NCBI GenBank assembly: GCA_043725085.1
Contig: JAYSLY010000046.1
Coordinates: 1-51,595 of the forward strand
DNA length: 51,595 bases
Source of the DNA: a bacterium
GTDB lineage: Bacteria > Patescibacteriota > Minisyncoccia > Moranbacterales > UBA2206
Direction of reading: 5' to 3'
The translations under genes and the position numbers were made by a program. Position 1 is the first letter of the stretch; the number at the start of each line of letters is the position of its first letter. The notes under the pieces were generated by a model. The model did not search any database. It was given only the letters and a program-made list of their open reading frames with translations, and was not told where the DNA came from. Of this stretch, positions 20,683-41,482 are shown piece after piece.

Positions 20683-21275
20683 CTATTGAAAATGCACTTC
20701 TTTGGGCGTTAAATATTCCAGAGATTGGTGTCGGTGGCTTTCATTGTAAAACTGAAAATATTCATTTAAACTGTTACGGGTTTCTGAAACGTTTCGGTAA
20801 TTGTTCAGATAAATGTTTTCTTGTTTCACGCTGCGCCACAATCTTTCCACAAAAATATTATCCAGGCACCGTCCACGACCGTCCATGCTGATTTGAATGT
20901 TTTGGGATTCCAGCGTACTTGTAAATTGCGGACTGGTAAACTGGCTGCCTTGGTCGGAATTGAATATTTTCGGCTTGTTTTTAGTTTGAGCCAATGCTTC
21001 ATTTAAACATCCCAGGCAAAAATCAATGTCGAGGCTGTTACTGAGTTTCCAGCTGATCACATAGCGGCTAAACCAATCAATGACAGCGACAAGATAAGCG
21101 AAACCCTCAGTTAAGTTCATAATCTGCTTGTCTTTTGAGCTGACGGTGGCTGATCTGTAGTAGGCGCTTTCCCGAGAAATGCCCAGCAACCGGCACTGCC
21201 CCCCCCAATGGTAAGCTTTTCATGCTCTTTTTCAATGAGCGCTACTTTCCGGCTATGGGGTAAATATTGATAATT
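20683..21275 (-). pseudogene. IS3 OrfB transposase remnant
   Basis: Keeps YLVAVIDWFSR, NSDQGSQFTS and DNIFVERLWRSVK.E but lacks the HTH and the first catalytic-Asp segment; frameshifted at an 8-G tract (21199-21206). Confidence 0.85.
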
Positions 21276-22185: not shown

Positions 22186-25100
22186 ATGATCAAAACAAAA
22201 ATCAATGTCAAATTTGAGAGAGAGAGAGAGAGAGTTAATGGCGCTCAAAAATTAGAAAACAGAAATCTTTTAGACTTTGGCCAAAAGATAATTTTAACTT
22301 GTCTTTTGGTTTTTATTTTTGGGCTTGGGGCGAAGGCGAGTGCGGCGACCTTAGCAAACCCAGAACAATGGCAATATCAAAAGAAGATTAACATTACTGG
22401 AACGGGATCCGCTGAAACTGATTACATTACCAATGTAAATTTACACTACGGATCATCTTCTGGCGATACCACAGCCAAAGATGTATTTCTTGACAGCCAT
22501 GCAAAGACTGATTTTTCTGATGTTAGAATTACTGATTCAACGGGCAATTTAATTCCCTTCTATTTGACCCCAGCCGTAAATGCAGAAATGATTTACAGCA
22601 ATACTAAAACCGGATATCATAATGTTCGACTTGCTGACGGTTCATTACTGGCTTACGGGGTATCGGGGCAAGCGGGTATAGTTCTTAGCACAGATAATGG
22701 GAATACTTGGACTCAGAAATTCGTTGTTTCTAGTATGGGAAGTTTGCTTTTTGTTGATTCGAGAGGTTATTGGTATTGGATGAGTGGGAATTTATTAAAG
22801 CGTTCAACAGACGGGGTGACATCTTCCACTGTTCTAGATATTGGGTCTAATAATAGTATCCAATGGATTGGAATGACCGAAGACAATTCTCATAATCTTT
22901 GGGTGGGACAATACACCTCTGATGGGGGAAATCGTCCTTCAATTCGGAAATCAACCGATGGAGGAGCGAACTTTAATGAAGTGCTTGGCTATACAACTTC
23001 GCCTGCATGGCAGACAAGTTATTCTTATGTTGTTGGAGATATTATCAGGCCGACAACCGCAAATAGTCACCTCTATTATGTTTCATCTGTCACAACTGGC
23101 ATTTCGAGCGGAAGCGAGCCTTCGTGGCCAACGACGACCAGCGCAACTGTGGTTGATGGAGGAGTAACCTGGAAAGAAAGCTCGTGGCAACATATTCATG
23201 GTATTGGTGCCGATCCTTATACTGGGAATATTTATTTTGGTTTTGATGGAGAGCCAGCTATTGTGAAATCCACCGATGGAACTACTTTTAAAGTACTGCG
23301 AGCCAATCTTGATGCTGATGTTACCCAAATGGCTTTCGCTCCTACTTATCGACTATTTGGCAGTGGAGCAAGCGCAGCTATGCAAGGGGAATCTTTACTA
23401 AAAGCAAACGCAGATGACTCAATCATAACGGCTATTTTCAATAGAGGCCAAGATATACAAGGAGTAAAAATCATAGGTTCTACTATTGTGATAAGTGGAG
23501 TTTCTTATGACAGAGCCGCTTACCCCGCTATATATGTCAGCACTGATGGTGGTACAACTTTTAATATGATGACTCACTATCCATTCGATTCATCCCTGAG
23601 CTTTAGTGGTTATGAATATTTTGACGGTCCGTATACTCCTGCGGGAGCAAGCGAAACAGCTATTTTTGCTGGTGGTAACGTTGGCACCGGATCAGGTTCT
23701 TATCCGAATGGGCGTATTTATGTGGGAAGTAATCACTACCAAGGTGAAGTCTATCTTAAAATTCCTTCTCTTCCAGCGGGAGGAAAAGATTTTTATGTTT
23801 GGTATGGCAATTCTTCAGCTACTTCGACCAGTGATGTAACAATGTTTCCAAATATGGTACAAAACACCCTTGTTGCTAGATGGAAAATGGATGAAGGTAG
23901 TGGAACGAGTGTAGTTGATTCGTGTGCCTCTTCCGGGGCTTCTTGCTTGGAGACCGGCACTCACAACGGAACGCTTACACATACATCCGGAAAAGGATCA
24001 TACAATGCTTTTAATGGGAGAAGGTCGGGAATGTATTATCCGGATATTAAACAATCTGGGGCTTCTTATAATTTCAATGCCGGTGATTATGTTGAGGTAG
24101 CAGATCATGCCAATCTCCAAATGGTTAAGAATTTTACGGTCACGGCTTGGATACGTGGAACAAATTTGGCAAGCAATCAATGCATAATTTGCAAGGGATC
24201 AAATTCAAGTGGAAATTTTTGGGGTCTTGCTACTGGAGGAACTGGTGGGAATTTGAAGTTTTATAACGGTAGCGGATCCACTTTTAAATATACAAGTTAT
24301 CCAGTTCCGCTCAATGCTTCAGATTGGAAAAATGTGACAGCGGTCATAGATAATGCAAGTCCGGCTAAAGTAACATTTTATGTAAATGGCGTAGTTGATG
24401 GAAGTTCGCAAACATTAAGTGCCGACGTTGGAAGTACGGTGGGATTGAATCTTAGAATAGGTGCTGATACGGCGAGCAATTTTAAATTTACTGGCGACAT
24501 TGATGACGTGCAAATTTATAATACCGCTCTTGCCGCCACTCAAATTCGCCAAATTTACGAAGACCGAATGTTTGCATCAGTCGAACCTTCAATCAGCTCT
24601 GCCACTTCAACTTATCCCATTTATGGAAACCCATATATTGAAGGTTTTGAATTACAGCCTTCATATACGATGGGGACAAATGAAGTAGACACCTCTGCTA
24701 ATGTTCGCGTGTATGGCGATGGAAAATTTCGAAACACTGAAACTGCCGGAGGAACGACTGCTGATCTTTACGTAATACCTCAAGGTAGTCAAACTACCAA
24801 ATGGCTGGATATTACCAAAGCAGATGATGAACTTTCTCTTATTTGGGAAGCAAATCATAAAAAATGGAAAGAATCCTCCATTATTTTGGGAGAAACAAAC
24901 ACGCTACACATTGTAGGTGATTTAGTAACCGGAAAAAAATATTCTCTTACCATTGACACCAGCTCTCCCAGTGGAAAAATCACCAGCACAGATTGTACCC
25001 AAGCGGGAGTTTGCACGGCTGACGGAACCGGGCATATTACTTTTACCTATACCGGCGGATATTCCGATCATACTTTTGATATCACTGATAATATCGCGCC

Positions 25101-26349
25101 CGCATTTTCCAATATTTCCCCGGCTTCCGGCGCAACAGTTTCCACTGATGACACTATCACTTTCACTGACAGCGAAACAACGAGTCCACAATGTTCTTTG
25201 GATAATTCCCATTGGAACAACTGCACCACGACTGTCACCAGTTTTCATGATCTCACTGGCTGGTCATCAATCAATGAAGGTGACACTTTCACTCTCTTTC
25301 TCAAAGACACAGACGCTGCTAATAATACTGGAACAGCACGAGTGGATAATCTTACCAAAGCCGATGAATCTGCGCCTGTTCGTAACGGCGGCTCGCCAAG
25401 CGGGAATTTATCTTCTGGCACCACCTCAACAACTCTAAGTCTCACTACCAGCGAAACCGCTACCTGTAAATATTCCGCATCTTCCGGAACAACATATGCC
25501 GATATGACCAGTAGCCTTGATACTACAAACGGCACAACACACACCAAAAGCATTTCCGGCCTAACTGATGGCAATTCATATAATTACTATGTCCGATGTG
25601 AAGACGCTTCGCATAATACCAATAACACAGATTATCTGATCAGTTTCTCTGTTGCGAAACCAAATACTAATGAAAATACTGATAATAATACTGATGACGA
25701 TAAAAACTTGAATATCCACAATGTTAAAGCCGAATCTACAGAAAATACGATAACCATCACCTGGAAAACCGATTATAACACCAAATCAACAATCAGATAT
25801 GGAAGAAACAAAAACCTTAGTGAAAAGAAAAAAGACAACAGCAAAGAGAAAAAACACGAGGTGATTTTGAAAAATCTTGAACCAAATACAAAATACTATT
25901 TCCGCATTAAGGCCACTGATAGCGACGGTAACGAAGATTCCGGCAGTATTCACTCTATTGTGACCAAATCTGCTTCTTCGCAAACAACGAATCAAATTTC
26001 CAACCAAAATCAAACAGAAAATCAAAATCAACCAAGCACAACAGAAAATATCCAAACTCCGTCATATTCCGGAAATTCCACACCAAACGCTTGTTCATAC
26101 ATCGTTCAATCCGGCGACACACTTTTGACGATTGCCAAAAAAGTTTATGGCGATGCTACCGCTTATCCTCAAATCATCGAGAAAAACAAAGACAAATATC
26201 CGGACATTGAATCAAAACTTTCTATTGGGCAGGAGTTGACTTTTTGCGACCCCGTAAAATCGCCTGACAGCGATCACGGGGCAAGCAACAATCAAAATCA
26301 GCCCCAAACCAAAACTTTTCGCTGGTGGAATCCCTTCTCTTGGTTTTAA
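22186..26349 (+). CDS. Large secreted surface protein (DUF2341-like, BNR/Asp-box propeller, LamG, Ig/FN3, LysM)
   Basis: Signal peptide; STDxGxT[WF] Asp-boxes; LamG (ARWKMDEGSG...FTGDIDDVQIYNTAL); FN3 (LEPNTKYYFRIKA); LysM (YIVQSGDTL..IA..VYGD). Confidence 0.88.
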   Translation: MIKTKINVKFERERERVNGAQKLENRNLLDFGQKIILTCLLVFIFGLGAKASAATLANPEQWQYQKKINITGTGSAETDYITNVNLHYGSSSGDTTAKDVFLDSHAKTDFSDVRITDSTGNLIPFYLTPAVNAEMIYSNTKTGYHNVRLADGSLLAYGVSGQAGIVLSTDNGNTWTQKFVVSSMGSLLFVDSRGYWYWMSGNLLKRSTDGVTSSTVLDIGSNNSIQWIGMTEDNSHNLWVGQYTSDGGNRPSIRKSTDGGANFNEVLGYTTSPAWQTSYSYVVGDIIRPTTANSHLYYVSSVTTGISSGSEPSWPTTTSATVVDGGVTWKESSWQHIHGIGADPYTGNIYFGFDGEPAIVKSTDGTTFKVLRANLDADVTQMAFAPTYRLFGSGASAAMQGESLLKANADDSIITAIFNRGQDIQGVKIIGSTIVISGVSYDRAAYPAIYVSTDGGTTFNMMTHYPFDSSLSFSGYEYFDGPYTPAGASETAIFAGGNVGTGSGSYPNGRIYVGSNHYQGEVYLKIPSLPAGGKDFYVWYGNSSATSTSDVTMFPNMVQNTLVARWKMDEGSGTSVVDSCASSGASCLETGTHNGTLTHTSGKGSYNAFNGRRSGMYYPDIKQSGASYNFNAGDYVEVADHANLQMVKNFTVTAWIRGTNLASNQCIICKGSNSSGNFWGLATGGTGGNLKFYNGSGSTFKYTSYPVPLNASDWKNVTAVIDNASPAKVTFYVNGVVDGSSQTLSADVGSTVGLNLRIGADTASNFKFTGDIDDVQIYNTALAATQIRQIYEDRMFASVEPSISSATSTYPIYGNPYIEGFELQPSYTMGTNEVDTSANVRVYGDGKFRNTETAGGTTADLYVIPQGSQTTKWLDITKADDELSLIWEANHKKWKESSIILGETNTLHIVGDLVTGKKYSLTIDTSSPSGKITSTDCTQAGVCTADGTGHITFTYTGGYSDHTFDITDNIAPAFSNISPASGATVSTDDTITFTDSETTSPQCSLDNSHWNNCTTTVTSFHDLTGWSSINEGDTFTLFLKDTDAANNTGTARVDNLTKADESAPVRNGGSPSGNLSSGTTSTTLSLTTSETATCKYSASSGTTYADMTSSLDTTNGTTHTKSISGLTDGNSYNYYVRCEDASHNTNNTDYLISFSVAKPNTNENTDNNTDDDKNLNIHNVKAESTENTITITWKTDYNTKSTIRYGRNKNLSEKKKDNSKEKKHEVILKNLEPNTKYYFRIKATDSDGNEDSGSIHSIVTKSASSQTTNQISNQNQTENQNQPSTTENIQTPSYSGNSTPNACSYIVQSGDTLLTIAKKVYGDATAYPQIIEKNKDKYPDIESKLSIGQELTFCDPVKSPDSDHGASNNQNQPQTKTFRWWNPFSWF
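22216..22234 (+). repeat. (GA)9G simple sequence repeat in the 5' coding region
   Basis: GAGAGAGAGAGAGAGAGAG encoding ERERER; currently in frame. Confidence 0.9.
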
Positions 26350-26504
26350 CGCCAAACTCTTGATAAAACCTCAAAAGGGAGGTGTATTTGTTTAAGCGTG
26401 CGCGAATGGGTCGGGTGGGTCAAGCACGCTTACCTTTTTATTATATTTTTTCTTAATTTTCCGCCGACCAATTTTTTCGCGGGAATTCTGATTTCGTTTT
26501 AATG

Positions 26505-26591
26505 CGGAGAGGGAGGGATTTGAACCCTCGAAGGGTTTTACCCCTTGCCACGTTAGCAGTGTGGTGCTTTCAGCCACTCAGCCACCTCTCC
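26505..26591 (-). tRNA. tRNA-Ser(GCT)
   Basis: GGAGAGG...CCTCTCC-G, long variable arm, anticodon loop CT GCT AA. Confidence 0.93.
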
Positions 26592-26742
26592 AATTTTTTT
26601 TATTCTATTGTAAAGGATACGATCACTCTCAGTCCTAGACTGATGGGTCTTCGGCCTGAATCTACATCTCCAAATGCCATAAATCTTAACTTTTAAATAC
26701 TACCAGCTGGATTGCTAATTGTAAACCCCGCGCATAGGCATC

Positions 26743-26772
26743 TGTAGGGATGGGGCATTGCCTCGTTTCTAT
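26743..26772. repeat. Degenerate GTAG-type REP
   Basis: TGTAGGGATGGGGCATTGCCTCGTTTCTAT, a diverged relative of 48723-48752. Confidence 0.65.
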
Positions 26773-26818
26773 CTAATGTGTTAATATGAATTAAAGTCGG
26801 CAATTTATTGGAAATTAA

Positions 26819-27409
26819 ATGTATATCGAAAATCACAATAAACATATTGAAAATGATGACGAGGAAGAGTTGCTTTTGGAGAAAAATCACAGGGAACCGG
26901 AAATGCTCGAAGCTCCTGCAAATGAAGAGCTGATAGCGCAACATTCTAAGGATACGCTGATGCATTGGAGTGCGCCGGAGTTTGAAATGTTCGAAAAAGA
27001 TAAAAAGCGTCTTTCCTATATCGCACTTGTTCTTTTGGTAATTATTGTTTATGCAACCTTTACCAATAATCCAATCATGGCGATTGTTTTTGTGCTCATC
27101 GGAATCGTCGCCTATATGCAGCTCAACAAGGAGCCGCGCATCTTGGATTTTCGCATTGTGCCCAAAGGAGTTTTGGCTGGCAATGAAATATACGAGTTTG
27201 AAAATATGCGTTCTTTTTGGATTTTTTATGATCCAAAGTATAAAAAAATAATCAGCTTGCACACCAAGAACTATCTTACACCCTTTGTGCATATTCCCGT
27301 TGAAAACGAAGACCCGGTGGAAATTCGCCGAATTTTGCTCAAATATATTCCGGAAATCAAACAAGAACATAATTTTGCCGAAATATTGGAAAGGTTTTTG
27401 GGAGTATGA
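26819..27409 (+). CDS. Hypothetical membrane protein (two TM helices plus soluble domain)
   Basis: 196 aa; W.APEF motif, TM hairpin, SFWIFY. Confidence 0.8.
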   Translation: MYIENHNKHIENDDEEELLLEKNHREPEMLEAPANEELIAQHSKDTLMHWSAPEFEMFEKDKKRLSYIALVLLVIIVYATFTNNPIMAIVFVLIGIVAYMQLNKEPRILDFRIVPKGVLAGNEIYEFENMRSFWIFYDPKYKKIISLHTKNYLTPFVHIPVENEDPVEIRRILLKYIPEIKQEHNFAEILERFLGV

Positions 27410-27433
27410 TGACGCTTTTTACTTTTTAGATTT

Positions 27434-27507
27434 CGGGCTGTAGTATGCCGGTAGTACGCGTCCATGGGGTGGATGTAGACCGAGTTCGATTCTCGGCAGC
27501 CCGACCA
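27434..27507 (+). tRNA. tRNA-Pro(GGG)
   Basis: CGGGCTG...CAGCCCG-A-CCA; anticodon arm CGTCC AT GGG GT GGATG. Confidence 0.92.
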
Positions 27508-27551
27508 GGATAGCAGGGGGGGGCAGAAAAACGATCTAACCGGATAAAATC

Positions 27552-28157
27552 ATGGATCTCTCAAATTTTTCAGGCGCTTTTGATTGGATTATCCAGCATG
27601 GGTATTTTTTGATGTTTGTTATCATGCTTATTGAAGGTCCGGTGATCACGGCTGCGGCCGCTTTTGCTGTGGCCTTAGGTTATTTTGATGGTTGGTTAGT
27701 TTTCTTGCTTTCTATTTTGGGCAACCTGATTCCGGATGTGATCTATTACGCCTTGGGTTATTGGGGACGAGAAAGATTAGTCAATAAATATGCGCACCTT
27801 TTCGGTTTGCCGCACGACAGGATAGTTTATTTGGAAAATCTTTCTCGGCGGCACGCAGGAAAAGCGATGACTCTGATTAAGCTAGTTCCGCTTTTAGCAA
27901 CCCCTGGACTGATTATCGCTGGAGCGATCAAAATGCCACTTAGGAAATATATTAATTGGTGCATAATTCTCACCATTCCCTCTTCACTTTTTTTCTATCT
28001 CATCGGCTACTATTTTGGAGCTGCCTATGATAAAATAAATCACTACCTTAATCTGGGAGGACTAGCGCTAATTTTAATGCTAATTCTTTTCGTCTCGGCA
28101 TCTTATGGCTATGGAAAACTGACCGCCAGATTTGCCAAGAAAATCGATAAATCATAA
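27552..28157 (+). CDS. DedA/VTT family membrane protein (paralog of 13898-14506)
   Basis: HGYFLMF..MLIEGP, GNLIPD..YY.LG and AGAIKMP motifs. Confidence 0.9.
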   Translation: MDLSNFSGAFDWIIQHGYFLMFVIMLIEGPVITAAAAFAVALGYFDGWLVFLLSILGNLIPDVIYYALGYWGRERLVNKYAHLFGLPHDRIVYLENLSRRHAGKAMTLIKLVPLLATPGLIIAGAIKMPLRKYINWCIILTIPSSLFFYLIGYYFGAAYDKINHYLNLGGLALILMLILFVSASYGYGKLTARFAKKIDKS

Positions 28158-28192
28158 TAGACGCTTACGCGTTTTTTGGAAAAATAAAACAT

Positions 28193-29386
28193 ATGCGTAT
28201 TGCCATTTTTTGTGACAACTTTTATCCGGAACTGAGTGGGATTTCTGATTCCATTATCGCTTCTGCGCGAGAACTGGCGAAATGTGGCCACACCGTTCGC
28301 TTTTTTGTGCCGGGCTATTCCGAAAAAGATTTCAAGATGGGCGGGATCAACTCTAAGAGAGAAATTGATTTGGATAATGGCATTGAAATTACGCGCTTTT
28401 TTGCCGTTCCCTATCCCACGCCAACTAAGCAAGGACGAATGGTTATTCCGACTGGTTTGCGCTGGATGGCCATCAAAAAATTCAGACCGGATGTGATTCA
28501 TTCTCATCTTTTTTTTGGTGTCGGGCTAGAAGCAATGCTCGCGGCAAAAATACTCAAGGTGCCTTTTTTGGGAACCAATCACACAGCAATTACGCAGTAT
28601 GTGAAATATGCGCCAGTGAGAGGTGAGTGGGTGGAGCGGTTTAGTCTGAAATATGTCAATTGGTATTATGGCAAGTGCCAGCTCACGACTTCTCCGTCAA
28701 AACTGCTGCTTGATGAGATGAAAAAAAATGGCTTCAAAGGGAGGCACGAAATGGTCTATAATCCGGTTGACATGAAAACTTTTAATCTTAATGCCGATCA
28801 CAACAAAGCTGAATTAAAAGAAAAGTTTAAATTAAACAACAAGGTGATTGTTTATGCCGGAAGATTCGCACCAGAAAAAAATATTGATGTTATCGTGCGT
28901 GCCATTGCTCTGGCTAAAGAAAAAATTCCCGACATCACTTTAGCTATGGCAGGTCATGGCGCCTATTTTGAGGAGATAAACAAATTAGCTCTAAAACTTG
29001 GTCTTCAGAAAAACATTAAGTTTTTTGGGACGCTTAGTCATTTTGAACTAGCTGATCTTTACCGAGCTTCAGATGTTTTTTCCATAACGAGTACGTCAGA
29101 AATTCAGAGCATGACACTTATTCAGGCTATGGCTTGCGGGTTGCCAACAGTCGGGGTGAGAGCAAGAGGTTTTGAATACATCGGAGAAAATGGTATCCTT
29201 GTGGAACCGGGGGATTCAAAAGCGCTTGCCCAAAAATTTGTCTTACTCTTGGAAAATGCGGAGCTGAGAAATGATTTGTCTAGGCGTTCATTGGAATTCG
29301 CGCAAAAATTATCCGACAGAAATATTGCACTTTTATGGGAAAAAATTTATGCACGAGAAATTAATATGTTCAAGGTAAAAATATGA
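28193..29386 (+). CDS. GT4 glycosyltransferase, diacylglycerol glucosyltransferase-like
   Basis: IAIFCDNFYPELSGI, TNHT...Y, GRFAPEKN, STSEIQSM...AMACGLP. Confidence 0.88.
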   Translation: MRIAIFCDNFYPELSGISDSIIASARELAKCGHTVRFFVPGYSEKDFKMGGINSKREIDLDNGIEITRFFAVPYPTPTKQGRMVIPTGLRWMAIKKFRPDVIHSHLFFGVGLEAMLAAKILKVPFLGTNHTAITQYVKYAPVRGEWVERFSLKYVNWYYGKCQLTTSPSKLLLDEMKKNGFKGRHEMVYNPVDMKTFNLNADHNKAELKEKFKLNNKVIVYAGRFAPEKNIDVIVRAIALAKEKIPDITLAMAGHGAYFEEINKLALKLGLQKNIKFFGTLSHFELADLYRASDVFSITSTSEIQSMTLIQAMACGLPTVGVRARGFEYIGENGILVEPGDSKALAQKFVLLLENAELRNDLSRRSLEFAQKLSDRNIALLWEKIYAREINMFKVKI

Positions 29387-30117
29387 AAATTAGTTTTGTT
29401 GTTCCGGCCTACAATGAAGAAAAATATATCGGAAAATGTTTGGAATCAATTTTGCGTGAGATAGCTCGCAGTAAGGTGGATGCGGAAGTTATTGCTGTGA
29501 ATAATGCCAGCACTGACAAAACACGAGAAGTGATCCTGGCTCGCCCGGGCGTTTTGCTCGTGGACGAATTACGAAAAGGTCTATCACAAGCACGTCAAGC
29601 CGGCTTTATTGCCTCCTCAGGAGAAATTATTGCCAACATTGATGCGGATAGCATTTTGGCCCCAGGTTGGATCGAGAAAGCAATGAGAGAATTTTCCAAA
29701 AATAAAAAACTGGTCGCGCTGAGTGGACCATATATCTATTATGACAGGTCATTATGGGTCAACTTCCTCGTTTGGGCGTATTACCTAATAGGCTATGTCG
29801 GGCATCTCTTTAATCACTATATTTTAAGAAAAGGTGCAATGCTCCAGGGCGGCAACTTTGTGCTTAGGCGCAGTGCATTGGAGAAGGTTGGTGGGTTTGA
29901 TGTGCGAATTGGTTTTTATGGTGAAGATACTGATATTGCTAAACGCATTCAAAAAATCGGACAGGCCAAATTTTCCTTTTTCTTTCCGATGCGAACTTCT
30001 GCCAGGAGGTTTTCCGGAGAGGGTCTGATTTTTACTGCCATTCGATACGGAATTAATCATTTTTGGGTAATTATTTTTAATAAACCTTTTTCTAAGGAAT
30101 ATAAAGACATAAGATAA
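29383..30117 (+). CDS. GT2 glycosyltransferase
   Basis: SFVVPAYNEE, NNASTD, IDAD, GGFD..GED, TSARR. Confidence 0.92.
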   Translation: MKISFVVPAYNEEKYIGKCLESILREIARSKVDAEVIAVNNASTDKTREVILARPGVLLVDELRKGLSQARQAGFIASSGEIIANIDADSILAPGWIEKAMREFSKNKKLVALSGPYIYYDRSLWVNFLVWAYYLIGYVGHLFNHYILRKGAMLQGGNFVLRRSALEKVGGFDVRIGFYGEDTDIAKRIQKIGQAKFSFFFPMRTSARRFSGEGLIFTAIRYGINHFWVIIFNKPFSKEYKDIR

Positions 30118-30125
30118 GAAAATAA

Positions 30126-30794
30126 ATGCTTGAGCTCAAGGAAATATTTCTCAAAAATAAACAATATTGGAAGCATAAGGATGTGTCCCAGTCAATTTTT
30201 GTGGGCAGCCTGTTTTTTGTCGTTAGTATCATTATCAATCATTTCACTTCGCTTTATGTCGACAAAAGCGCCAGCAGTCATGTCACTGACATTCTTTTAG
30301 ATAATCTGCCAGTAGTAAGTGTGAATTTTATTGTTAATGAAGTAGCCTGGGTTTTTATCTGGCTGGCAGTTTTATTGCTTCTGATTAAACCGCAAAGAAT
30401 TCCCTATGTGCTGAAAAATGTAGCGTTATTTATTTTTGTCCGCTCGATCTTTATTTCTCTTACGCATCTTGGACCTATCCCGGATCATTCTTTTCTCAAC
30501 CGACATGACCTGTTGACCAATATTGCTTCAGGCAATGATATGTTTTTTTCCGGTCACACTGGCATGCCCTTTCTCTTAGCTTTGATTTTTTGGGAAAACA
30601 AGGTCTTACGCTATATTTTTCTGTTTGGTTCGTTTTTGTTTGGTGTGAGTATGATTTTGGGGCATCTGCACTACTCGATTGATGTCGCTGCCGCCTTTTT
30701 TATCACACACAGTCTTTATCGCATCGGCCTGAAGCTATTTAGCGCTGATTATAAACTTTTTCATAAGGCGGAGTTAGAAGAAGTTAAGGTCTAA
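30126..30794 (+). CDS. PAP2-superfamily, sphingomyelin/IPC-synthase-like membrane phosphotransferase
   Basis: About 6 TM helices; NDMFFSGHT and HLHYSIDV.AA match the D3 (DxxxSGHT) and D4 (HYTxDV) motifs. Confidence 0.8.
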   Translation: MLELKEIFLKNKQYWKHKDVSQSIFVGSLFFVVSIIINHFTSLYVDKSASSHVTDILLDNLPVVSVNFIVNEVAWVFIWLAVLLLLIKPQRIPYVLKNVALFIFVRSIFISLTHLGPIPDHSFLNRHDLLTNIASGNDMFFSGHTGMPFLLALIFWENKVLRYIFLFGSFLFGVSMILGHLHYSIDVAAAFFITHSLYRIGLKLFSADYKLFHKAELEEVKV

Positions 30795-31546
30795 ATCTTT
30801 TGCCTGGCAATGATTGCGCCAAAAACCTCTTTTGCTCCAGCTGCTTTTAGTGTTTTTGCACACTCAAATAGTGTCGCTCCGGTGGTGGCAACATCATCAA
30901 CAAGGAGAATCCTTTTGCTTTTGATTATTTTTTGCGCTTGCGGAAGAATAGCAAACGCATCATGAAGATTATTCAGTCTTTCCTGATAGTTTTTGATTTT
31001 CATCTGAACTCTGGTTTTCTTTTGGCGAAAAACCAAATCATTGCGAACCGGAAGAGGAAGGCCCGGAGTCAAATTTTGGCTGATCGCTAAAGCTAAAATT
31101 TCCGCTTGATTGAATCCGCGCCATTTCAACTTGCGCTTGTGAATGGGGATGGGGATAATAAAATCAGGCAAGGGGAGATCATTTTTTCGCAGAATTCTTG
31201 CGATTATCTCTCCAAGTGGTATGCCAAGGTCAAAAACGAAGCTATATTTGAATAAATGGACCAATTTGGAAACTTTTTGATAATCCGTGGCGCAAATAAG
31301 CGCATCCAAAGCTAGGGAAGTTTCTTTTTCGAATCGGAATCTTTTGCATTTTTCGCAAATGGAGCCGTTTTGGGTGATTTCTTTTTCACAATAGGGGCAA
31401 AGCTGAAAAGAAAGCAGTGGAAATTCACCCACACACTCATCACAAAGCCAAACAGCTTTTTTCTGGCAAGCAAGGCATGCGATGGGGAAAAGAGCGTCAA
31501 GGAAAAAAGTGTTTACCTTTTCTAATTTAGAAAGTAATTGTTTGAT
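30791..31546 (-). CDS. comF: ComF family competence protein (zinc ribbon + PRTase)
   Basis: KY, IPIPIH..K.KWRGFNQ, LLVDDVATTGATL. The frame stays open upstream of GTG 31432 through LFPIACLAC..LCDEC; start uncertain, ATC 31546 proposed. Confidence 0.88.
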   Translation of the reverse strand: MKQLLSKLEKVNTFFLDALFPIACLACQKKAVWLCDECVGEFPLLSFQLCPYCEKEITQNGSICEKCKRFRFEKETSLALDALICATDYQKVSKLVHLFKYSFVFDLGIPLGEIIARILRKNDLPLPDFIIPIPIHKRKLKWRGFNQAEILALAISQNLTPGLPLPVRNDLVFRQKKTRVQMKIKNYQERLNNLHDAFAILPQAQKIIKSKRILLVDDVATTGATLFECAKTLKAAGAKEVFGAIIARQKI

Positions 31547-31600
31547 GGTTTTGCTATTATTTGTTACTTCGTGGGTTGTGTTGCAGTTTTAGTGAAGCTC

Positions 31601-32415: not shown

Positions 32416-33522
32416 ATGTTTGATTTTAATTTCAAAAAAAATGTATTTCTGGGTGTTGACATTGGGACAGCATCGATCAAAATCGTAGAGATCAAAATAA
32501 TTGACGAAAAGCCAGTGCTGTCTAATTATGCCTGGATGCCACTAGTTGGAGATAGCCCGGGAAAAAGAGATGCTGATTCCGAATATTTTTTTGCTACATT
32601 GCCGGTTTGTCTCAAAAAAATCATCAAAAAAGCAAAATTCAGCGGGAACAATGCCTATGTTTCTTTGCCGTCTTTTGGGGGGTTGATTACACTGATTGAT
32701 TTTCCCGAAATGGCGGATGCTGATATGGATCAAGCTATTAAATTTGAAGCGCATAAATATATCCCAACATCCCTAGACGATGTGGTAATCAGTTGGGATG
32801 TGGTGGAAAGAATAGCCGCGCCAAAAAATTCGGAGGTGGCTTCCGACCAAGCAAAGTGCGTCCCTGGTTCGGCAGTAAAAGTGCTCTTAGTTGCGGCTTC
32901 GAAAAGCAAGATTATTCGATATGAAAGTCTGATTAAATCTGTTGGCCTAAAACTCAATTCGATTAATATTGAAGCTTTTTCCGCGGTACGCTCACTCATT
33001 GGCAATGATCCGGGCAGTTTTATTATTGTCGACATTGGCGCCAGGATTTGCAATATTATTCTCGTAGAGAAAGGCGTGATTAGGAGTAATAGAAATATTG
33101 ATGCCGGAGGGCTGGATATGACAAAAACAATTGCCAAGGGAATGCTTATTGACAATAAAAGAGCGGAAGAGTTGAAAGTTTCCGGTAAGAACTTTTTTGC
33201 CCCCGATTCGCCAATCAGCTTTTTCACATTGGAACTGATTATGGGCGAGGTGGAGAGAATTATTCGTGCATACTACAAGGCAGATGGAAGGAGTAGTGTT
33301 GGGGAGATTATTCTTTCCGGCGGAACGGCAAATATGACAGGTCTCACGGATTATTTTTTTAATAAGCTAAAAATAAAAACAGTCGTTGGAAATCCTTTTG
33401 CCAGAATCGCCTATGATAGCAGATTGGAAAAATCAGTTGCCAAGATGCGTACCGGTTTTTCTGTTGCAGTCGGTTCAGCACTGAAAGGCGTTGAAGAATA
33501 TTTGAAAAAAGAGACAAAATAA
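32416..33522 (+). CDS. pilM: Type IV pilus assembly protein PilM (second copy)
   Basis: LGVDIGTASIKIVE, EAHKYIP, IVDIGA, ILSGGTA, AVGSAL. Confidence 0.93.
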   Translation: MFDFNFKKNVFLGVDIGTASIKIVEIKIIDEKPVLSNYAWMPLVGDSPGKRDADSEYFFATLPVCLKKIIKKAKFSGNNAYVSLPSFGGLITLIDFPEMADADMDQAIKFEAHKYIPTSLDDVVISWDVVERIAAPKNSEVASDQAKCVPGSAVKVLLVAASKSKIIRYESLIKSVGLKLNSINIEAFSAVRSLIGNDPGSFIIVDIGARICNIILVEKGVIRSNRNIDAGGLDMTKTIAKGMLIDNKRAEELKVSGKNFFAPDSPISFFTLELIMGEVERIIRAYYKADGRSSVGEIILSGGTANMTGLTDYFFNKLKIKTVVGNPFARIAYDSRLEKSVAKMRTGFSVAVGSALKGVEEYLKKETK

Positions 33523-33599
33523 ACCCATTCTTCATCGCTTGCTTGCTTTTAAAGTTAATTTTTTTCGTAAAATCGCTAAGCATACAAAATTAAAAAATA

Positions 33600-33669
33600 T
33601 ATAATTTAATAAAATACTCCTCGCGCAAGTCGCAAATGCGAACAAAAAAAGCAGCGGGGGATAAACAAA
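33600..33669 (+). promoter_or_regulatory. Promoter + leader motif shared with pilC (38294-38344)
   Basis: TATAAT-11nt-CTCCT...AAAAAAG..GCGGGGGATAAA before the ATG. Confidence 0.6.
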
Positions 33670-34182
33670 ATGGCAAATATAAATTTGATCACCAGTAAGG
33701 AAGAAAGTAATTCCCTCGGAACAGGCATTGGCGCTCTTTTTGCGCTACTCCTGGTAGTCGCCCTGATCTACGTCGGCTTGCTTTTCTATGGAAATAAGCT
33801 GGTGGATGATGCTAATAAGTCGGCGAAAGAATATGAAAGCAAGCTTAACAATTTTATTGCCGGAGATGCGAAAAGAGTTCTTGATTTTCAAAATAGACTT
33901 TCGATTTCCAAAGTTCTTTTAGCTCAAGAGCGGGATAGCGGCAAGGATATCGGGAAGGTGGAAGATGCTATGATTACCGGAGTCAATCTGGGTTCCTATA
34001 AATATGATGATGCATCAAAATCTATTACGCTTGATTGTTATGCGGATAACTATGAAACGGTGGCCAAACAAATCTTAAGCTTTAAGAGTTACGACTATTT
34101 TTCTTCTGTTTTTGCGGGAGAAACCAAGTTTGACACAAAAAGTAATAAAATTAGTTTCCCGGTCGTTTTAACAATTAAATAA
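33670..34182 (+). CDS. pilN: PilN-like protein
   Basis: NINL motif, one TM, follows pilM. Confidence 0.7.
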   Translation: MANINLITSKEESNSLGTGIGALFALLLVVALIYVGLLFYGNKLVDDANKSAKEYESKLNNFIAGDAKRVLDFQNRLSISKVLLAQERDSGKDIGKVEDAMITGVNLGSYKYDDASKSITLDCYADNYETVAKQILSFKSYDYFSSVFAGETKFDTKSNKISFPVVLTIK

Positions 34183-34187
34183 AAAAT

Positions 34188-34994
34188 ATGAAAATAAAAA
34201 TATTACTTGCCCCGTCACTTATCATAATAACCATAACAATGCTCATCTGGCTTGTTTATCCTGCCTATACTAATGGAATTGATGGTGTTAAAGAAAAAAG
34301 ACAAAAATTAGCAGACCAGCGGAATCTGATGAATAGACTTGATAGCAATGTTGGTAATGTGGAAAAGCTTACGGCTGATTTAGGCGCCAATTCTATTGAT
34401 AATGCTGTCGTTTTTAGTTATCTTCCGGAGAATAAGGAAGAGGAAAAAATTATTGATAATCTCAATTCTTTAGCAAAAGACAGCACCTTGTCGGTACTTA
34501 ATATTTCTGTTGTTGAGCCAAAAGTGTTAGATGTGATTGCTACTACGGAGACTGGTCTTTCTGCTGTCCCGCTTCCAGGGCTCAACCCGAATGCAAATGC
34601 GCAAACTTTGACTCCGGCTGAAACCACCAAGGCTGATTTGAGGAAACTATCGGTGACACTGTCAGTTATTGGTGATTATTCAAACATAAAGAGTTTGTTG
34701 GGAAAAATTCAAAGGTTAAAAAGATTCAACAAAATTTCAACCTTAGAGATAAAGACGCTGCTCAAAGAAGATCAAAGTATCAGTGATTCTTTGCAGGCTA
34801 ATGCAACGCTGGAATTTGATTATCTTAATATGCCAAGCCAATTAATGAAAGGGGATATTAATAATGCCGTTTTTGCTAACGGTGTCTTTGATAAACAAGT
34901 GATGGCGGAGATAAAAAATAGTAGAAGTATAAATGTCAATAATGTTTCGCCGGGACAAAAAGGCGGAAATAATCCTTTTGTTATCGCAAAATAA
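34188..34994 (+). CDS. pilO: PilO-like protein
   Basis: TM, coiled coil, YLP, GDYSNIK.LL.KI..LKR. Confidence 0.75.
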   Translation: MKIKILLAPSLIIITITMLIWLVYPAYTNGIDGVKEKRQKLADQRNLMNRLDSNVGNVEKLTADLGANSIDNAVVFSYLPENKEEEKIIDNLNSLAKDSTLSVLNISVVEPKVLDVIATTETGLSAVPLPGLNPNANAQTLTPAETTKADLRKLSVTLSVIGDYSNIKSLLGKIQRLKRFNKISTLEIKTLLKEDQSISDSLQANATLEFDYLNMPSQLMKGDINNAVFANGVFDKQVMAEIKNSRSINVNNVSPGQKGGNNPFVIAK

Positions 34995-36670
34995 TGCCAA
35001 TAAAAGACGAAGAGGCTAAAAATAATGGCGACAAGGCTGTGCAGGGAGAGCCGGGAATCAAGCAAAACATCCTCAGGAAAGTGCCGAAAAATATTGCCGG
35101 GGATATCATAAATATAATCCCCAAGGAAGTCGCTAAGAAATATGAAATGATGGCCTTTGGTAAATCCGAAGGGGTGCTTAGTGTGGCCATGATTGATCCG
35201 GAAAATATGCAAGCTTTGAACGCTCTGAATTTTGTCGCAGAAAAAGAAAACGTCAGGATAGAAACTTATGCCGTGTCTCGAGAAAATTTTGACATTTTGT
35301 TTTCTTACTACAATGAAACAAATGAGGCCTTGAAGGACGCGCTGGATTCCTATAAAGACGAAAGGAACGAAACGGATATCTTGGAAAAGAATGAGGATGA
35401 TGGGCAAAAAGAAAGGAAGGAAACAGAGACGCTAAAAGACGCTCCTGTGACTAAATTGGTCGAGGTTGTGATTAGCCACGCCGTGGAGGGAAAGGCTAGC
35501 GATATCCATATCGAACCAATGGATAAGGATTATCGCGTGCGTTTTCGAGTAGATGGAATACTTCATGTTAGTCTCATTTTTCCTCTAGAAATCGGTCCGG
35601 TGGTGATTTCGCGCATCAAGATTATGGCTAATTTGAAGATTGATGAAAAAAGAAAACCACAGGACGGAAGATTTAGGCTTAATTTTAATAAAAAAGACAT
35701 CGACTTTCGCGTTTCCTCTTTGCCGGTTGTCGGCGGAGAGAAAATTGTAATGAGAATTTTGGACAAGGAAGCTGAATCAAACAGTACGGAACTTTTAGGT
35801 TTAGTTGGAAAAGCCAAGGAGGATATCGACCTGGCAATCAAAGAAACTTATGGCATGATTCTTATGACCGGCCCGACCGGTAGCGGAAAATCAACTACCC
35901 TCTACACGCTTTTGAAAATGCTTAATAATGAGGAGCGAAATATTATCACGCTGGAAGACCCTGTTGAATATTACATCGAAGGCATGAACCAAAGTCAAAT
36001 CAAGCCGGAAATTGGCTATACCTTTGCTTCAGGCCTAAGAACGGTTCTGCGTCAAGATCCAAATGTGATTATGGTGGGAGAAATTCGTGACGCAGAAACG
36101 GCAGAGCTGGCTGTCCATGCCGCACTCACAGGCCACTTAATGTTTTCCACCCTGCACACCAACACAGCTATTGGAGCGATTCCTCGGCTTATTGATATGG
36201 GCATTGAACCGTTTCTCTTGTCTTCTGCGTTGCGCATGGTGATTGCGCAAAGACTAGTGCGTCGAATTTGTGTGAAGTGCAAAGAAGAAGTGAAAATTTC
36301 CGATTTTGTCAAAGAACGAGTGCTGGAAAAAGTAAGAAATATTTCGCAAAAAGAATTAGAAAGCTATGGAATAAATCTGGCGAGCGGGGTAAAATTTTAC
36401 CATGGGGCAGGGTGTGATGCGTGTAATGGAACCGGGCTCAAGGGGCGCGTGGCGATCTATGAAGCGGTGCCCGTGACAGATGTGATCAAAAATATTATGA
36501 TTGAAAAAAGGGGGAGCGAGGAATTGATCAAAAAAGAAAGAGATCGGATGGGGGTTGTGACAATTGAGCAAGACGGAGTGCTTAAGATCATTCAAGGACT
36601 TACCACTATCGAAGAAGTTGAGCGAGTGACAGAATGTAATTTTACGACGTTAGTTGAAGAAAACGATTAA
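34994..36670 (+). CDS. pilB: Type IV pilus extension ATPase PilB (GspE/PulE family)
   Basis: ASDIHIEP, PQDGR, GPTGSGKSTT, LEDPVEY, LRQDPNVIMVGEIRD, CxxC..CxxC. Confidence 0.95.
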   Translation: MPIKDEEAKNNGDKAVQGEPGIKQNILRKVPKNIAGDIINIIPKEVAKKYEMMAFGKSEGVLSVAMIDPENMQALNALNFVAEKENVRIETYAVSRENFDILFSYYNETNEALKDALDSYKDERNETDILEKNEDDGQKERKETETLKDAPVTKLVEVVISHAVEGKASDIHIEPMDKDYRVRFRVDGILHVSLIFPLEIGPVVISRIKIMANLKIDEKRKPQDGRFRLNFNKKDIDFRVSSLPVVGGEKIVMRILDKEAESNSTELLGLVGKAKEDIDLAIKETYGMILMTGPTGSGKSTTLYTLLKMLNNEERNIITLEDPVEYYIEGMNQSQIKPEIGYTFASGLRTVLRQDPNVIMVGEIRDAETAELAVHAALTGHLMFSTLHTNTAIGAIPRLIDMGIEPFLLSSALRMVIAQRLVRRICVKCKEEVKISDFVKERVLEKVRNISQKELESYGINLASGVKFYHGAGCDACNGTGLKGRVAIYEAVPVTDVIKNIMIEKRGSEELIKKERDRMGVVTIEQDGVLKIIQGLTTIEEVERVTECNFTTLVEEND

Positions 36671-36703
36671 ACCTAATAAACTAGTTAACTTTGAAATAAT
36701 TTT

Positions 36704-37093
36704 ATGGAAAACAGTAAAAAGAAAATAATGATTATCGAAGACGACTATTTTGTAATGGATATCTATCACACAAAACTGACGCAATCCGGCTTTGATGTAA
36801 TTAGCGCGAGCAATGGATTGGAGGCGATGAAAAAGCTGCAAGAAGAAAAACAGATTCCGGATTTAATTCTATTGGACATTATTATGCCTTATCTTGGAGG
36901 ATTGGAAGTTTTGGAGCAAATCAAAAAAGATGATCAAATAAAAAATATTCCTGTTATTCTTCTTACTAATTTAAGTCAAAAAAGAGAGATTGACAGGGGG
37001 ATGGAGTTGGGAGCCAAGGATTTCTTAATTAAATCGCATTTTACGCCATCCGAGGTTTTGGAGAAAATAAATGCTGTGCTTGAGACGGCCTAA
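36704..37093 (+). CDS. Single-domain response regulator (CheY-like)
   Basis: IIEDD, PDLILLDIIMP, LLTN, FLIK. Confidence 0.93.
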   Translation: MENSKKKIMIIEDDYFVMDIYHTKLTQSGFDVISASNGLEAMKKLQEEKQIPDLILLDIIMPYLGGLEVLEQIKKDDQIKNIPVILLTNLSQKREIDRGMELGAKDFLIKSHFTPSEVLEKINAVLETA

Positions 37094-37099
37094 AAAAAT

Positions 37100-38170: not shown

Positions 38171-38293
38171 TTTTCAATTTTCCAAAATTAGTAGTATAAT
38201 AAATTTATCTTCCACAGCTTTTTTCGTTTACATGAAACGCGTTAGCAAAAAAAGTCAAACGAAATCTAGCTTAGTGTTGTGAAATATAGTTTT

Positions 38294-41470: not shown

Positions 41471-41482
41471 ACTTTTTGTCGT

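Follow-up and report, generated by a model that had tools for sequence, protein, structure and literature searches.

A DedA-glycosyltransferase-PAP2_C operon of a Patescibacteriota genome as a candidate membrane-lipid remodelling pathway

The DNA studied here (the window) is the whole 51,595-nt contig JAYSLY010000046.1 of assembly GCA_043725085.1, from a member of the Patescibacteriota (Moranbacterales, UBA2206). It carries a tRNA-Pro gene followed by a tight four-gene operon, which encodes, in order, a DedA protein (DedA2), a GT4 and a GT2 glycosyltransferase, and a PAP2_C enzyme, all on the plus strand (Table 1). The successive gaps from the tRNA gene to the PAP2_C gene are 44, 35, -4, and 8 nt, the negative value marking the overlap of the GT2 start with the GT4 stop. 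The ARAGORN tRNA call, the open reading frames, and the Pfam matches confirm the gene set and coordinates given in a first-pass annotation of this DNA. The operon is not a chance pattern because all four proteins have many homologs. A scan for sigma-70-type promoters returned no more sites than were found in shuffled sequence.

Table 1. Positions of the operon, its neighbours, and the paralogous module 1 in the window
Feature	Positions	Strand	Details
tRNA-Glu	13823-13895
DedA1	13898-14506	+	First gene of module 1; ATG 2 nt past tRNA-Glu
Alpha/beta hydrolase (Hydrolase_4)	14671-15492	+	PF12146, 74.8 bits
GT4_1	15517-16674	+	Paralog of operon GT4
tRNA-Pro (anticodon GGG)	27434-27507	+	ARAGORN
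DedA2, 201 aa	27552-28157	+	VTT/DedA PF09335, 43.9 bits
GT4, 397 aa	28193-29386	+	PF00534, 125 bits; PF13439, 83 bits
GT2, 244 aa	29383-30117	+	PF00535, 101 bits
PAP2_C, 222 aa	30126-30794	+	PF14360, 36.7 bits (cut-off 27)
ComF gene	30791-31432	-	Convergent; meets operon end head-on

The tRNA gene had been counted as part of the module, a view that did not hold: of 65 related loci, only 5 (3/49 and 2/16) have a tRNA gene on the same strand no more than 100 nt upstream of DedA, one arrangement of this kind being present in the closest relative (locus L004). The tRNA-Pro gene is a neighbour and does not belong to the conserved module. The operon had also been described as repeating the tRNA-DedA-GT4 layout of module 1 with diverged paralogs. 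The divergence is evident (28% identity between DedA1 and DedA2, 25% between GT4_1 and the operon GT4), and the two GT4 proteins are mutual best paralogs in the genome; however, that description left out the alpha/beta hydrolase gene of module 1. This hydrolase belongs to a lysophospholipase/monoacylglycerol-lipase-type family.

The PAP2_C protein passes the PF14360 cut-off (it scores 39.9 bits in the genome scan) and gave no match to PAP2_3 at E ≤ 0.01. It fails the threshold of the classical PAP2 model PF01569 (16.7 vs. 27.2 bits), for which a whole-genome scan returned no match at E ≤ 0.001, and none of the NCBIfam phosphatase models matched it at E ≤ 0.01. The motifs DMFFSGHT (residues 138-145) and HYSIDV (residues 182-187), already pointed out in the first-pass annotation, are indeed present and occupy columns that do not vary in an alignment of 49 family sequences. 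H144, H182, and D186 align with H301, H344, and D348, given in the available part of the source as the catalytic triad of SMSr (PMC12122681); the His-His-Asp triad is intact. This triad is invariant in 49/49 family sequences; SGH, HYS.D, and R-x6-T each occur in all 49 members as well, and a D1-like motif in 47 of them. The D1 and D2 motif regions of the sphingomyelin synthase (SMS) family lie in the TM1-2 loop and in TM3. The family profile aligns PAP2_C positions 17-118 with SMSr, both halves of the membrane core being matched, and sets D55 against the Asp of SMSr 'PDIFLD' and R106 against the Arg of 'LLRCF'; the alignment extends to all four SMS motif regions. In lipid phosphate phosphatases, the C1 and C3 motifs are defined as K-x6-RP and SR-x5-H-x3-D, each of which was found in 0/49 family members.

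Human SMSr was the only credible sequence match in the PDB (phmmer 5.8e-6, profile 1.4e-8), at an identity of approximately 19-22%, and the family profile retrieved no PgpB, LpxE, or LPP chain from the PDB even at E ≤ 10. The AF2 model (pLDDT 88.4) contains six TM helices. Its top VIA fold match is again SMSr (8ijq_A; Z 14.9, rmsd 3.9, 198 aligned residues), followed by IPC synthases (Z 12.3 and 12.1); phosphatases reach Z 11.5 or lower, a margin below SMSr that is moderate for a helical bundle. The family has an invariant His114 where SMSr has Ser. The outer loops contain 0, 1, and 0 Lys or Arg residues and the inner segments are rich in both, and the catalytic H144, H182, and D186 are predicted to face the non-cytoplasmic side. 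Judged by sequence and fold model, the last enzyme is of the SMS-like PAP2_C type and not a classical PAP2 phosphatase, in agreement with the earlier assignment (PAP2_C as opposed to PAP2_3), and it is proposed to be a diacylglycerol-releasing phospho-head-group hydrolase or transferase.

With regard to the glycosyltransferases, the best NCBIfam match of GT4 is alpha-monoglucosyldiacylglycerol synthase (Mgs, NF049988), which is matched over the full length at 122.6 bits (cut-off 400). Mgs is matched at E ≤ 1e-25 by 33 of 34 operon GT4s (best E-value 1.4e-61), and 26 of the 34 match the GlcNAc-phosphatidylglycerol synthase model at the same level, Mgs scoring higher throughout. BshA is also matched by 33/34, and the Mgs likeness is therefore unspecific; it is a matter of similarity and not of family membership. 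GT4 has no hydrophobic window at TM level and is a candidate cytoplasmic (di)acylglycerol-lipid glycosyltransferase. GT2 scores just below threshold on the GT21 lipid glycosyltransferase model PF13506 (21.0 bits, cut-off 21.7), which is matched at E ≤ 1e-4 by 18 of 26 GT2 orthologs and on which the GT2 parts of fusion proteins reach 24.5-36.3 bits. ArnC, PpgS, and haloarchaeal dolichyl-phosphate hexose transferase models gave at most 22 bits on GT2, compared with 50-73 for other GT2 models. The AF2 model of GT2 (pLDDT 92.8) has a generic GT-A fold, its best TM-score being with a membrane mannosyltransferase that takes part in archaeal N-glycan synthesis, and this small cytoplasmic enzyme is a candidate second sugar transferase.

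The genome contains 3 DedA genes per 1.02 Mb. On the UptA model (NF052604, cut-off 250 bits), DedA2 and DedA1 score 43.5 and 65.1 bits, in both cases below the cut-off and nevertheless the best NCBIfam match of each, whereas the third, unlinked DedA on another contig (C39) reaches 184.4 bits. By this measure, DedA2 is of an operon-type subfamily far from UptA, and is proposed to act as a lipid translocase. To our knowledge, undecaprenyl phosphate is the only bacterial DedA substrate with good experimental support.

Genome completeness is rated at 100% and contamination at 0.81%, and no FabF (ketoacyl synthase), PlsY, PlsC, CdsA, or PgsA (CDP-alcohol phosphatidyltransferase) was found, which bears out the expected absence of fab, pls, and cds genes. 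With all of these missing, swapping head groups on intact scavenged backbones is the obvious route left for altering lipid class. UppS is encoded, and the genome therefore makes undecaprenyl pyrophosphate. It also encodes BacA (269 bits) in addition to the C39 DedA, so undecaprenyl-phosphate housekeeping looks already covered. No LtaS-type sulfatase in the genome passed the cut-off (18.9 vs. 25 bits).

The operon is conserved in CPR. Of 80 related CPR loci that were retained, DedA is found 4 kb or less from PAP2_C in 48, GT4 in 42, GT2 in 38, any glycosyltransferase in 59, and DedA plus a glycosyltransferase in 45, while 18 have neither nearby. DedA adjacency would be expected by chance at approximately 2-3%, our own estimate from the density of DedA genes given above. 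Natural fusions join GT4 to GT2 (loci L026 and L041), DedA to GT2 (L043), GT2 to PAP2_C (P0121), and, in 1 of the 80 loci, GT2 to a polysaccharide deacetylase (L036); the first three kinds of fusion tie the operon genes together. An alpha/beta hydrolase occurs in 16/80 PAP2_C loci (e.g., L038, L051, L060, L069, and L070), and in other CPR the same hydrolase type as that of module 1 is found inside operons of the order DedA, GT4, alpha/beta hydrolase, PAP2_C. Genes for a sigma factor of the ECF type and an ABC pump of the MacB type often adjoin the module, a setting equally compatible with a general unit for envelope stress. The PAP2_C family itself is patchy (11/301 sampled genomes of the phylum).

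The reading that we favour, held with about even confidence, is that the four gene products act together in a single pathway of membrane-lipid remodelling, which works on scavenged diacylglycerol-based lipids. It was reported, in the available part of PMC7988496, that purified SMSr hydrolyses PE, PA, PI, and PC, yielding diacylglycerol without ceramide. The substrates, products, and transport direction that we infer for the operon would be as follows. PAP2_C on the outer face would strip or transfer the phospho-head group of an intact glycerophospholipid, leaving diacylglycerol, and the latter would cross the bilayer unaided, spontaneous crossing by diacylglycerol being established lipid biophysics. 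On the inner face, the soluble GT4 and GT2 would attach one or two sugars derived from nucleotide sugars, and the specialised DedA would carry the glycolipid, or incoming phospholipid, across the membrane. The operon partners appear lipid-flavoured, as suggested by the Mgs match of GT4, the GT21 match of GT2, and the lysophospholipase-type match of the hydrolase. A conversion of phospholipid to diacylglycerol and then to glycolipid had been put forward in the first-pass annotation; it is partly supported, by the SMS-like enzyme, the Mgs-like GT4, and the GT2s touching GT21, although the Mgs, GT21, and UptA scores all lie below their curated cut-offs. The further suggestion that this would let an organism lacking lipid synthesis build its own membrane agrees with the missing lipid genes, but it cannot be extended to CPR as a whole: the family occurs in 11/301 sampled genomes of the phylum and is therefore no general CPR route to membranes.

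The main alternative, itself rather unlikely, is an undecaprenyl-phosphate cycle, in which PAP2_C would dephosphorylate C55-PP outside, DedA would return the carrier, and GT2 and GT4 would load it with sugars for wall or surface glycans. In model bacteria, outward-facing PAP2-superfamily enzymes and the DedA protein UptA perform both of these carrier-recycling steps. UppS is present, UptA is the best, if weak, NCBIfam match of both operon DedAs, the natural GT2 fusions, one with DedA and one with PAP2_C, would also suit a carrier-lipid relay, and the nearby genes for an ECF sigma factor and an ABC pump point to control by envelope stress. Moreover, BacA is absent from 2 of 10 PAP2_C-positive genomes, in which PAP2_C could serve as undecaprenyl-pyrophosphate phosphatase. 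The notion that the enzyme is only such a phosphatase, named at the outset as what would overturn the lipid reading, is nevertheless weakened by the failed PAP2 model, the phosphate-binding motifs missing from all 49 sequences, and the lack of matches to PgpB, LpxE, and LPP in the PDB profile search and to NCBIfam phosphatases. The genome has its own BacA and a far more UptA-like DedA elsewhere, and polyprenyl-phosphate glycosyltransferase models score poorly on GT2. Such a cycle would also leave the alpha/beta hydrolase without a role, and the patchy distribution would be odd for a core recycling function.

It is also possible, although improbable, that PAP2_C is a true transferase. It would take a group such as glycerophosphate or phosphoethanolamine from scavenged, host-derived phospholipid at the outer leaflet and place it on the GT4/GT2 glycolipid or on a glycan. 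Its product, an equally doubtful point, might be a phosphoglycolipid or an anchor resembling lipoteichoic acid, formed without LtaS and wholly on scavenged diacylglycerol backbones, the released diacylglycerol feeding GT4. The closest relatives (SMS, SMSr, and IPC synthase) are transferases, all four SMS motif regions align, and in the Atlas listing 98% of the members of the PAP2_C cluster that is most frequent in Acidobacteriota are also assigned to the AtPDCT1/2 family. The lack of an LtaS-type sulfatase above cut-off is in line with such a product, and the GT2-PAP2_C fusion suggests that glycolipid maker and head-group enzyme share one lipid. However, the sequence fits hydrolysis and transfer alike, and SMS enzymes also hydrolyse.

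It is very improbable that the glycosyltransferases decorate phospholipid head groups directly, in the manner of GpgS, which puts GlcNAc on phosphatidylglycerol according to the available part of PMC12713373, with PAP2_C as an accessory lipid phosphatase (e.g., for PA or PGP) and not a diacylglycerol supplier: the GlcNAc-phosphatidylglycerol synthase matches of the operon GT4s and the GT2-deacetylase fusion, which recalls the synthase-deacetylase-flippase logic of gpgSDF as far as that source describes it, are set against a better match to Mgs throughout, a deacetylase in a single locus, a flippase (GpgF) that the same part of PMC12713373 assigns to another family (UPF0104), and a PAP2_C without phosphomonoesterase motifs.

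If PAP2_C is truly a head-group transferase of this kind, a prokaryotic homolog of sphingomyelin synthase would for the first time have an assigned function. A first enzymatic step would then also be defined in the conversion of host lipids by lipid-auxotrophic CPR bacteria into their own.

Among known systems, SMS1, SMS2, and SMSr provide the best sequence and fold match to PAP2_C, with which they share the six-TM core, the SGHT and HYS.D triad, the D1-like Asp, the D2-like R-x6-T, and an active site on the non-cytoplasmic face (predicted for PAP2_C); fungal and plant IPC synthases are further fold neighbours. Unlike the SMS family, PAP2_C is bacterial, minimal in size, devoid of a SAM domain, and encoded together with glycosyltransferases and DedA, and it has His114 in place of Ser. 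We know of no reason to expect a ceramide pathway in this bacterium. BcrC, PgpB, LpxE, and LPP1, together with UptA, resemble the operon proteins in superfamily fold (Z 9-11), outward site, and DedA pairing, whereas PAP2_C fails PF01569, neither the C1 nor the C3 basic motif is present in any of the 49 family sequences, and the operon DedAs are far from the UptA model. In the Gram-positive pathway for the lipoteichoic-acid anchor (UgtP/YpfP, LtaA, and LtaS), diacylglycerol released on the outside receives its sugars on the inside, and the resulting glycolipid is moved outward again; the proteins of this pathway are of other families (GT28, MFS, and sulfatase-type), and no LtaS passes the cut-off here.

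The gpgSDF genes of P. aeruginosa and hexSDF of C. difficile, as described in the available part of PMC12713373, combine a cytoplasmic GT4-type synthase with a membrane flippase candidate, as the operon does, and with a deacetylase; one related CPR locus likewise has a deacetylase, fused to GT2. They differ in their UPF0104/MprF-like flippase, in using phosphatidylglycerol itself as acceptor, and, in that part of the source, in having no PAP2_C partner. In marine and soil lipid renovation, the phospholipase C PlcP shares an operon with a glycolipid glycosyltransferase, as stated in the available part of PMC4796936. A diacylglycerol-yielding head-group remover adjoins a glycolipid glycosyltransferase gene (Agt/Pgt) there too, but PlcP is a soluble-type metallophosphoesterase, as opposed to the PAP2_C membrane enzyme that is the operon's candidate, and serves a phosphate-starvation response in lipid-making bacteria, in contrast to a host without lipid synthesis genes. 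The operon parallels PlcP-Agt in its proposed working logic and is not a member of that system.

In module 2, a tRNA-Pro gene is followed by an operon of four genes (table). The most economical account of this operon, for which the chances seem about even, is that head groups are exchanged on scavenged diacylglycerol lipids. Briefly, an outward-facing enzyme of the sphingomyelin synthase (SMS) type, PAP2_C, would release diacylglycerol, cytoplasmic glycosyltransferases (GTs) would glycosylate it, and a specialised DedA would carry the lipid across the membrane. It was reported, in the available text of PMC7988496, that the purified human family member SMSr produces diacylglycerol from PE, PA, PI, and PC without ceramide; a sphingolipid is thus not required. 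The main rival, which we regard as unlikely, is an undecaprenyl-phosphate relay from a PAP2 phosphatase to a DedA flippase and then to a GT. It is favored by a DedA precedent, UptA being an undecaprenyl-phosphate transporter of this family.

Genes of module 2 in the window, with their coordinates and matches.
Feature	Coordinates	Strand	Match
tRNA-Pro(GGG)	27434-27507		ARAGORN
DedA/VTT (DedA2)	27552-28157	same as the other three ORFs	PF09335, 43.9 bits
GT4	28193-29386	same	PF00534, 125 bits; PF13439
GT2	29383-30117	same	PF00535, 101 bits
PAP2_C	30126-30794	same	PF14360, 36.7 bits (cut-off 27)

The first-pass annotation had called the last gene SMS-like on the motifs DMFFSGHT and HYSIDV, leaving the choice between PAP2_C and PAP2_3 to profile assignment. 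Both motifs are present, in invariant alignment columns, and the Pfam search settled on PAP2_C, with no match to PAP2_3 in this protein. In 49 PAP2_C sequences, regular-expression counts placed the SGH-type, HYS.D, and R-x6-T motifs in 49/49 each and a D1-like motif in 47/49. The lipid-phosphatase motifs K-x6-RP and SR-x5-H-x3-D were found in 0/49 each, and the classical PAP2 model (PF01569) gave 16.7 bits on the window's protein, under its cut-off of 27.2. Both the missing phosphatase motifs and the failed PAP2 model speak against the undecaprenyl relay. The family is large, with 1571 proteins at E≤1e-3 in a word-indexed search, whose source name is only "phosphatase PAP2-related protein". 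The closest homologs carry the source names Moranbacteria/Moraniibacteriota.

When all PDB sequences were compared with the single PAP2_C protein, the sole match at E≤10 was SMSr (5.8e-6). The profile of 49 sequences matched SMSr at 1.4e-8, in two stretches spanning the membrane core; the four remaining PDB matches of this profile (E≥0.63) were small unrelated membrane peptides, and PgpB, LpxE, and LPP chains were absent from its matches. Residues H144, H182, and D186 of PAP2_C align to H301, H344, and D348 of SMSr, which constitute the catalytic triad according to the available portion of a structural paper on IPC synthase, a relative of SMS (PMC12122681). The AlphaFold model of PAP2_C comprises six transmembrane helices (pLDDT 88.4, pTM 0.88). 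Foldseek alone gave no match to it at E≤0.001, the best being 8ijq_A (E 3e-3, TM 0.54). After VIA re-alignment, SMSr ranked first (Z 14.9, rmsd 3.9, 198 aligned residues), followed by the IPC synthases 9vj4 and 9ivc (12.3 and 12.1), acid phosphatases and LPP1 (11.5-11.0), LpxE (10.7), and PgpB (9.3). This order of the modeled fold is in agreement with a head-group-transferase type; for a helical bundle, the margin is moderate. The three predicted outer loops contain 0, 1, and 0 Lys+Arg residues, which are abundant in the termini and the inner loops. On this charge pattern, the N-terminus is expected on the inner face and the triad on the outer one, an arrangement shared with SMS enzymes.

The PAP2_C gene occurs in one copy in the window's own genome (1.02 Mb, 56 contigs, rated 100% complete with 0.81% contamination). 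The absence of fab and pls genes that had been anticipated was confirmed: whole-genome family scans, in which named control genomes matched each family as expected, detected no PlsY, PlsC-type acyltransferase, CdsA, ketoacyl synthase, CDP-alcohol phosphatidyltransferase, or classical PAP2. UppS is present, as is BacA (269 bits). The genome has three DedA genes only. The third (L117:3001-3630 (-), contig C39), which has triose-phosphate isomerase on one side and a GalT-type uridylyltransferase on the other, and a further GT2 beyond, reached 184.4 bits with the UptA model (cut-off 250), compared with 43.5 and 65.1 bits for the operon DedAs; the existence of this UptA-like paralog elsewhere counts against the undecaprenyl relay. 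BacA was found in 8/10 other PAP2_C-positive genomes, and the two genomes lacking it are a point in favor of the relay. A CdsA-family match was found in 2/10 of them, both of one genus; it was weak and partial (32 bits), and the count comes from a small sample without a baseline.

A genome-contig search with PAP2_C gave at least 601 stretches (589 confirmed), and gene neighborhoods were compared in the best 80 related loci of this search. Within 4 kb of PAP2_C, DedA was found in 48/80 loci, GT4 in 42/80, an ortholog-like GT2 in 38/80, and any GT in 59/80; DedA plus a GT occurred in 45/80, all three in 15/80, and none in 18/80. Of the 44 loci with at least 4 kb available on both sides, 30 contained DedA and 8 contained none of the three. 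By our estimate, with three DedA genes in the own genome, DedA and PAP2_C would be adjacent by chance in about 2-3%. Clustering of all neighboring ORFs yielded the recurrent order DedA-GT4-(alpha/beta hydrolase)-(GT2)-PAP2_C. The hydrolase, of the Hydrolase_4 type, was found in 16/80 loci, often between GT4 and PAP2_C, and has no role in the undecaprenyl relay. Since it belongs to DedA-GT4-PAP2_C operons elsewhere, module 1 of the window (DedA, hydrolase, and GT4) and module 2 are parts of a set that other CPR hold in one operon.

Natural fusions connect all four operon proteins, in the forms GT4-GT2 (L026 and L041, ~640 aa), DedA-GT2 (L043), GT2-GT2 (L058), and GT2-PAP2_C (P0121, 470 aa). The N-terminal position of GT2 in P0121 agrees with a cytoplasmic PAP2_C N-terminus. 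Besides P0121, a search for longer PAP2_C forms yielded only P0122 (PAP2_C-DUF2127) and P0123 (PAP2_C-SAM methyltransferase). A GT2-polysaccharide deacetylase fusion (L036:4436-6007) hints that the lineage concerned may have an amino-sugar lipid.

With regard to the GT partners, the best NCBIfam match of GT4 was the alpha-monoglucosyldiacylglycerol synthase model (Mgs), over the full length at 122.6 bits (cut-off 400). Among 34 operon GT4s, 33 matched Mgs at E≤1e-25 and 33 also BshA, 26 matched a GlcNAc-phosphatidylglycerol synthase model, and 7 the LTA-anchor model BgsA/IagA. For GT2, 18/26 orthologs matched the GT21 model at E≤1e-4, the window's copy scoring 21.0 bits (cut-off 21.7). Polyprenyl-phosphate GT models gave at most 22 bits on the window's GT2, a weakness that again disfavors the undecaprenyl relay. 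A fold search with GT2 returned generic GT-A matches, which do not separate lipid from polyprenyl acceptors (Leptospira GT, PcManGT, WrtF, and chondroitin polymerase in the top rows); DPMS and GtrB were not among the matches listed. In both GT4 and GT2, hydrophobicity stays below transmembrane level throughout. An LTA-like variant of the account, with true head-group transfer, is improbable. In the own genome, no LtaS-type protein scored above cut-off and a Sulfatase match stayed sub-threshold (18.9 vs 25 bits).

A separate operon often adjoins the PAP2_C module and encodes an ECF-type sigma factor, two small proteins (one with DUF5666), an HlyD-like protein, an ABC ATPase, a MacB/FtsX permease, and a terminal small protein, also with DUF5666. 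Within 5 kb of PAP2_C in the best 80 loci, the ABC ATPase was found in 29/80, MacB in 20/80, HlyD in 20/80, and sigma in 18/80; loci with this operon include L012, L017, L022, L026, L029, L038, L051, and L070. The operon may encode a pump that serves envelope stress or lipid export, and such envelope-stress-like neighbors lend some weight to the undecaprenyl relay. In the own genome, the operon is unlinked to the module (L118, contig C43:9800-17600). Tail-to-tail with it lies a cardiolipin-synthase-like PLD gene (L118:960-1994 (+), 344 aa, two HKD motifs), which reached 164 bits with the cardiolipin synthase model (cut-off 290) and misses the model's N-terminal part. Judged by sequence, it is probably a further CDP-independent phospholipid head-group enzyme in this CdsA-less genome.

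The window, with two type IV pilus clusters, ComF, TsaD, LigA, and GatA, has a gene content typical of a CPR/Patescibacteria genome. The pilus clusters are separate (139-7328 and 32416-44094) within one 51-kb window, and comprise PilM/N/O, PilB/T, PilC, prepilin peptidase, and several pilins. Just 5′ of tRNA-Pro, an ORF (26819-27409 (+)) encodes 196 aa with a strongly hydrophobic center and no Pfam match; its homologs occur upstream of the module in 5/80 loci, and in 3 of these the module or the sigma factor gene follows directly. The predicted surface protein at 22186-26349 (+), of 1387 aa, combines Laminin_G_3, fn3, and purple-acid-phosphatase-N-like domains with a weak LysM; its linkers are of low complexity and rich in Asn/Gln. 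Between it and the tRNA genes, at 19861-21189 (-), lie an ORF for an HNH endonuclease and a 168-aa fragment of an integrase core (rve), which may be a mobile-element remnant. In module 2, spacings from tRNA-Pro to PAP2_C are 44, 35, -4, and 8 nt, and a convergent ComF gene abuts the operon's 3′ end. Promoter-like sites in 26300-31600 numbered 11 (11.8 expected) and terminator-like sites 8 (6.0 expected). The sequencing runs listed as containing the stretch are four DNA runs, all from a single sediment study, of which two may be its source, and no RNA runs.

The tRNA had also been counted as part of the module's layout, a proposal that was abandoned: a same-strand tRNA lies within 100 nt 5′ of DedA in just 3/49 and 2/16 loci, the latter two of one genus. 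An opposite-strand tRNA occurs within 300 nt of DedA in three more of the same 16 loci (L094, L100, and L102). In module 1, the tRNA-Glu 3′ end (13895) is 2 nt from the likely DedA1 ATG (13898), with GAGG inside the tRNA 3′ end; either the two are transcribed together and processing of the tRNA yields a nearly leaderless mRNA, or translation starts at another site. Other tRNAs abut DedA in relatives (tRNA-Cys at 3 nt in L021; tRNA-Ser at 15 and 28 nt in L096 and L098), and the module could tend toward tRNA-linked insertion sites.

In an even phylum sample of 301 genomes, the own genome included, the PAP2_C profile (E≤1e-10) was found in 11 (~4%) and a DedA homolog (E≤1e-15) in 194. The conservation across CPR that was to be checked holds for the recurrent DedA-GT4-(GT2)-PAP2_C order, but not for the breadth of PAP2_C. 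A GT4/GT2 is adjacent on the same strand in 14 of the 17 best-scoring DedA loci, two have a convergent GT4, and one has none; the following 13 by score have no GT match within 1.5 kb. Pairing of DedA with a GT is therefore a specialised trait of a minority, and the addition of PAP2_C is rarer still. At ~4%, the PAP2_C module counts as an accessory trait of the envelope rather than the way in which CPR generally obtain membrane lipids.

CPR/Patescibacteria are mostly unable to make fatty acids or phospholipids. Where their membrane lipids come from was termed elusive in the available sections of Probst et al. (PMC7242380), in which CPR are described as lacking lipid synthesis and as lysolipid-rich, and no such enzyme is named. 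The operon offers a concrete, compact candidate route from scavenged phospholipid to the cell's own lipids, testable by expression in E. coli. If true, a first function would be assigned to a large bacterial branch of the SMS family, and a glycolipid-linked, non-UptA role would be added for a DedA subfamily. In the library searched, no paper was found that links this family to CPR, treats PAP2_C together with bacteria and sphingomyelin synthase, or mentions PF14360. The available parts of a preprint (PMC13692244) and of the lipocone paper (PMC12419801), the one work found on both PAP2 and Patescibacteria, do not describe the module.

Phospholipid-to-glycolipid remodelling is a kind of system already known. 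The same logic underlies the PlcP-Agt/Pgt operons for lipid renovation (PMC4796936), with a phospholipase C that is unrelated to PAP2_C. According to the available text of PMC12713373, gpgSDF has a synthase-(deacetylase)-flippase design, with a GT4 acting on phospholipid. What would be new here is a non-homologous SMS-type head-group enzyme with a DedA partner, in bacteria unable to make lipids.
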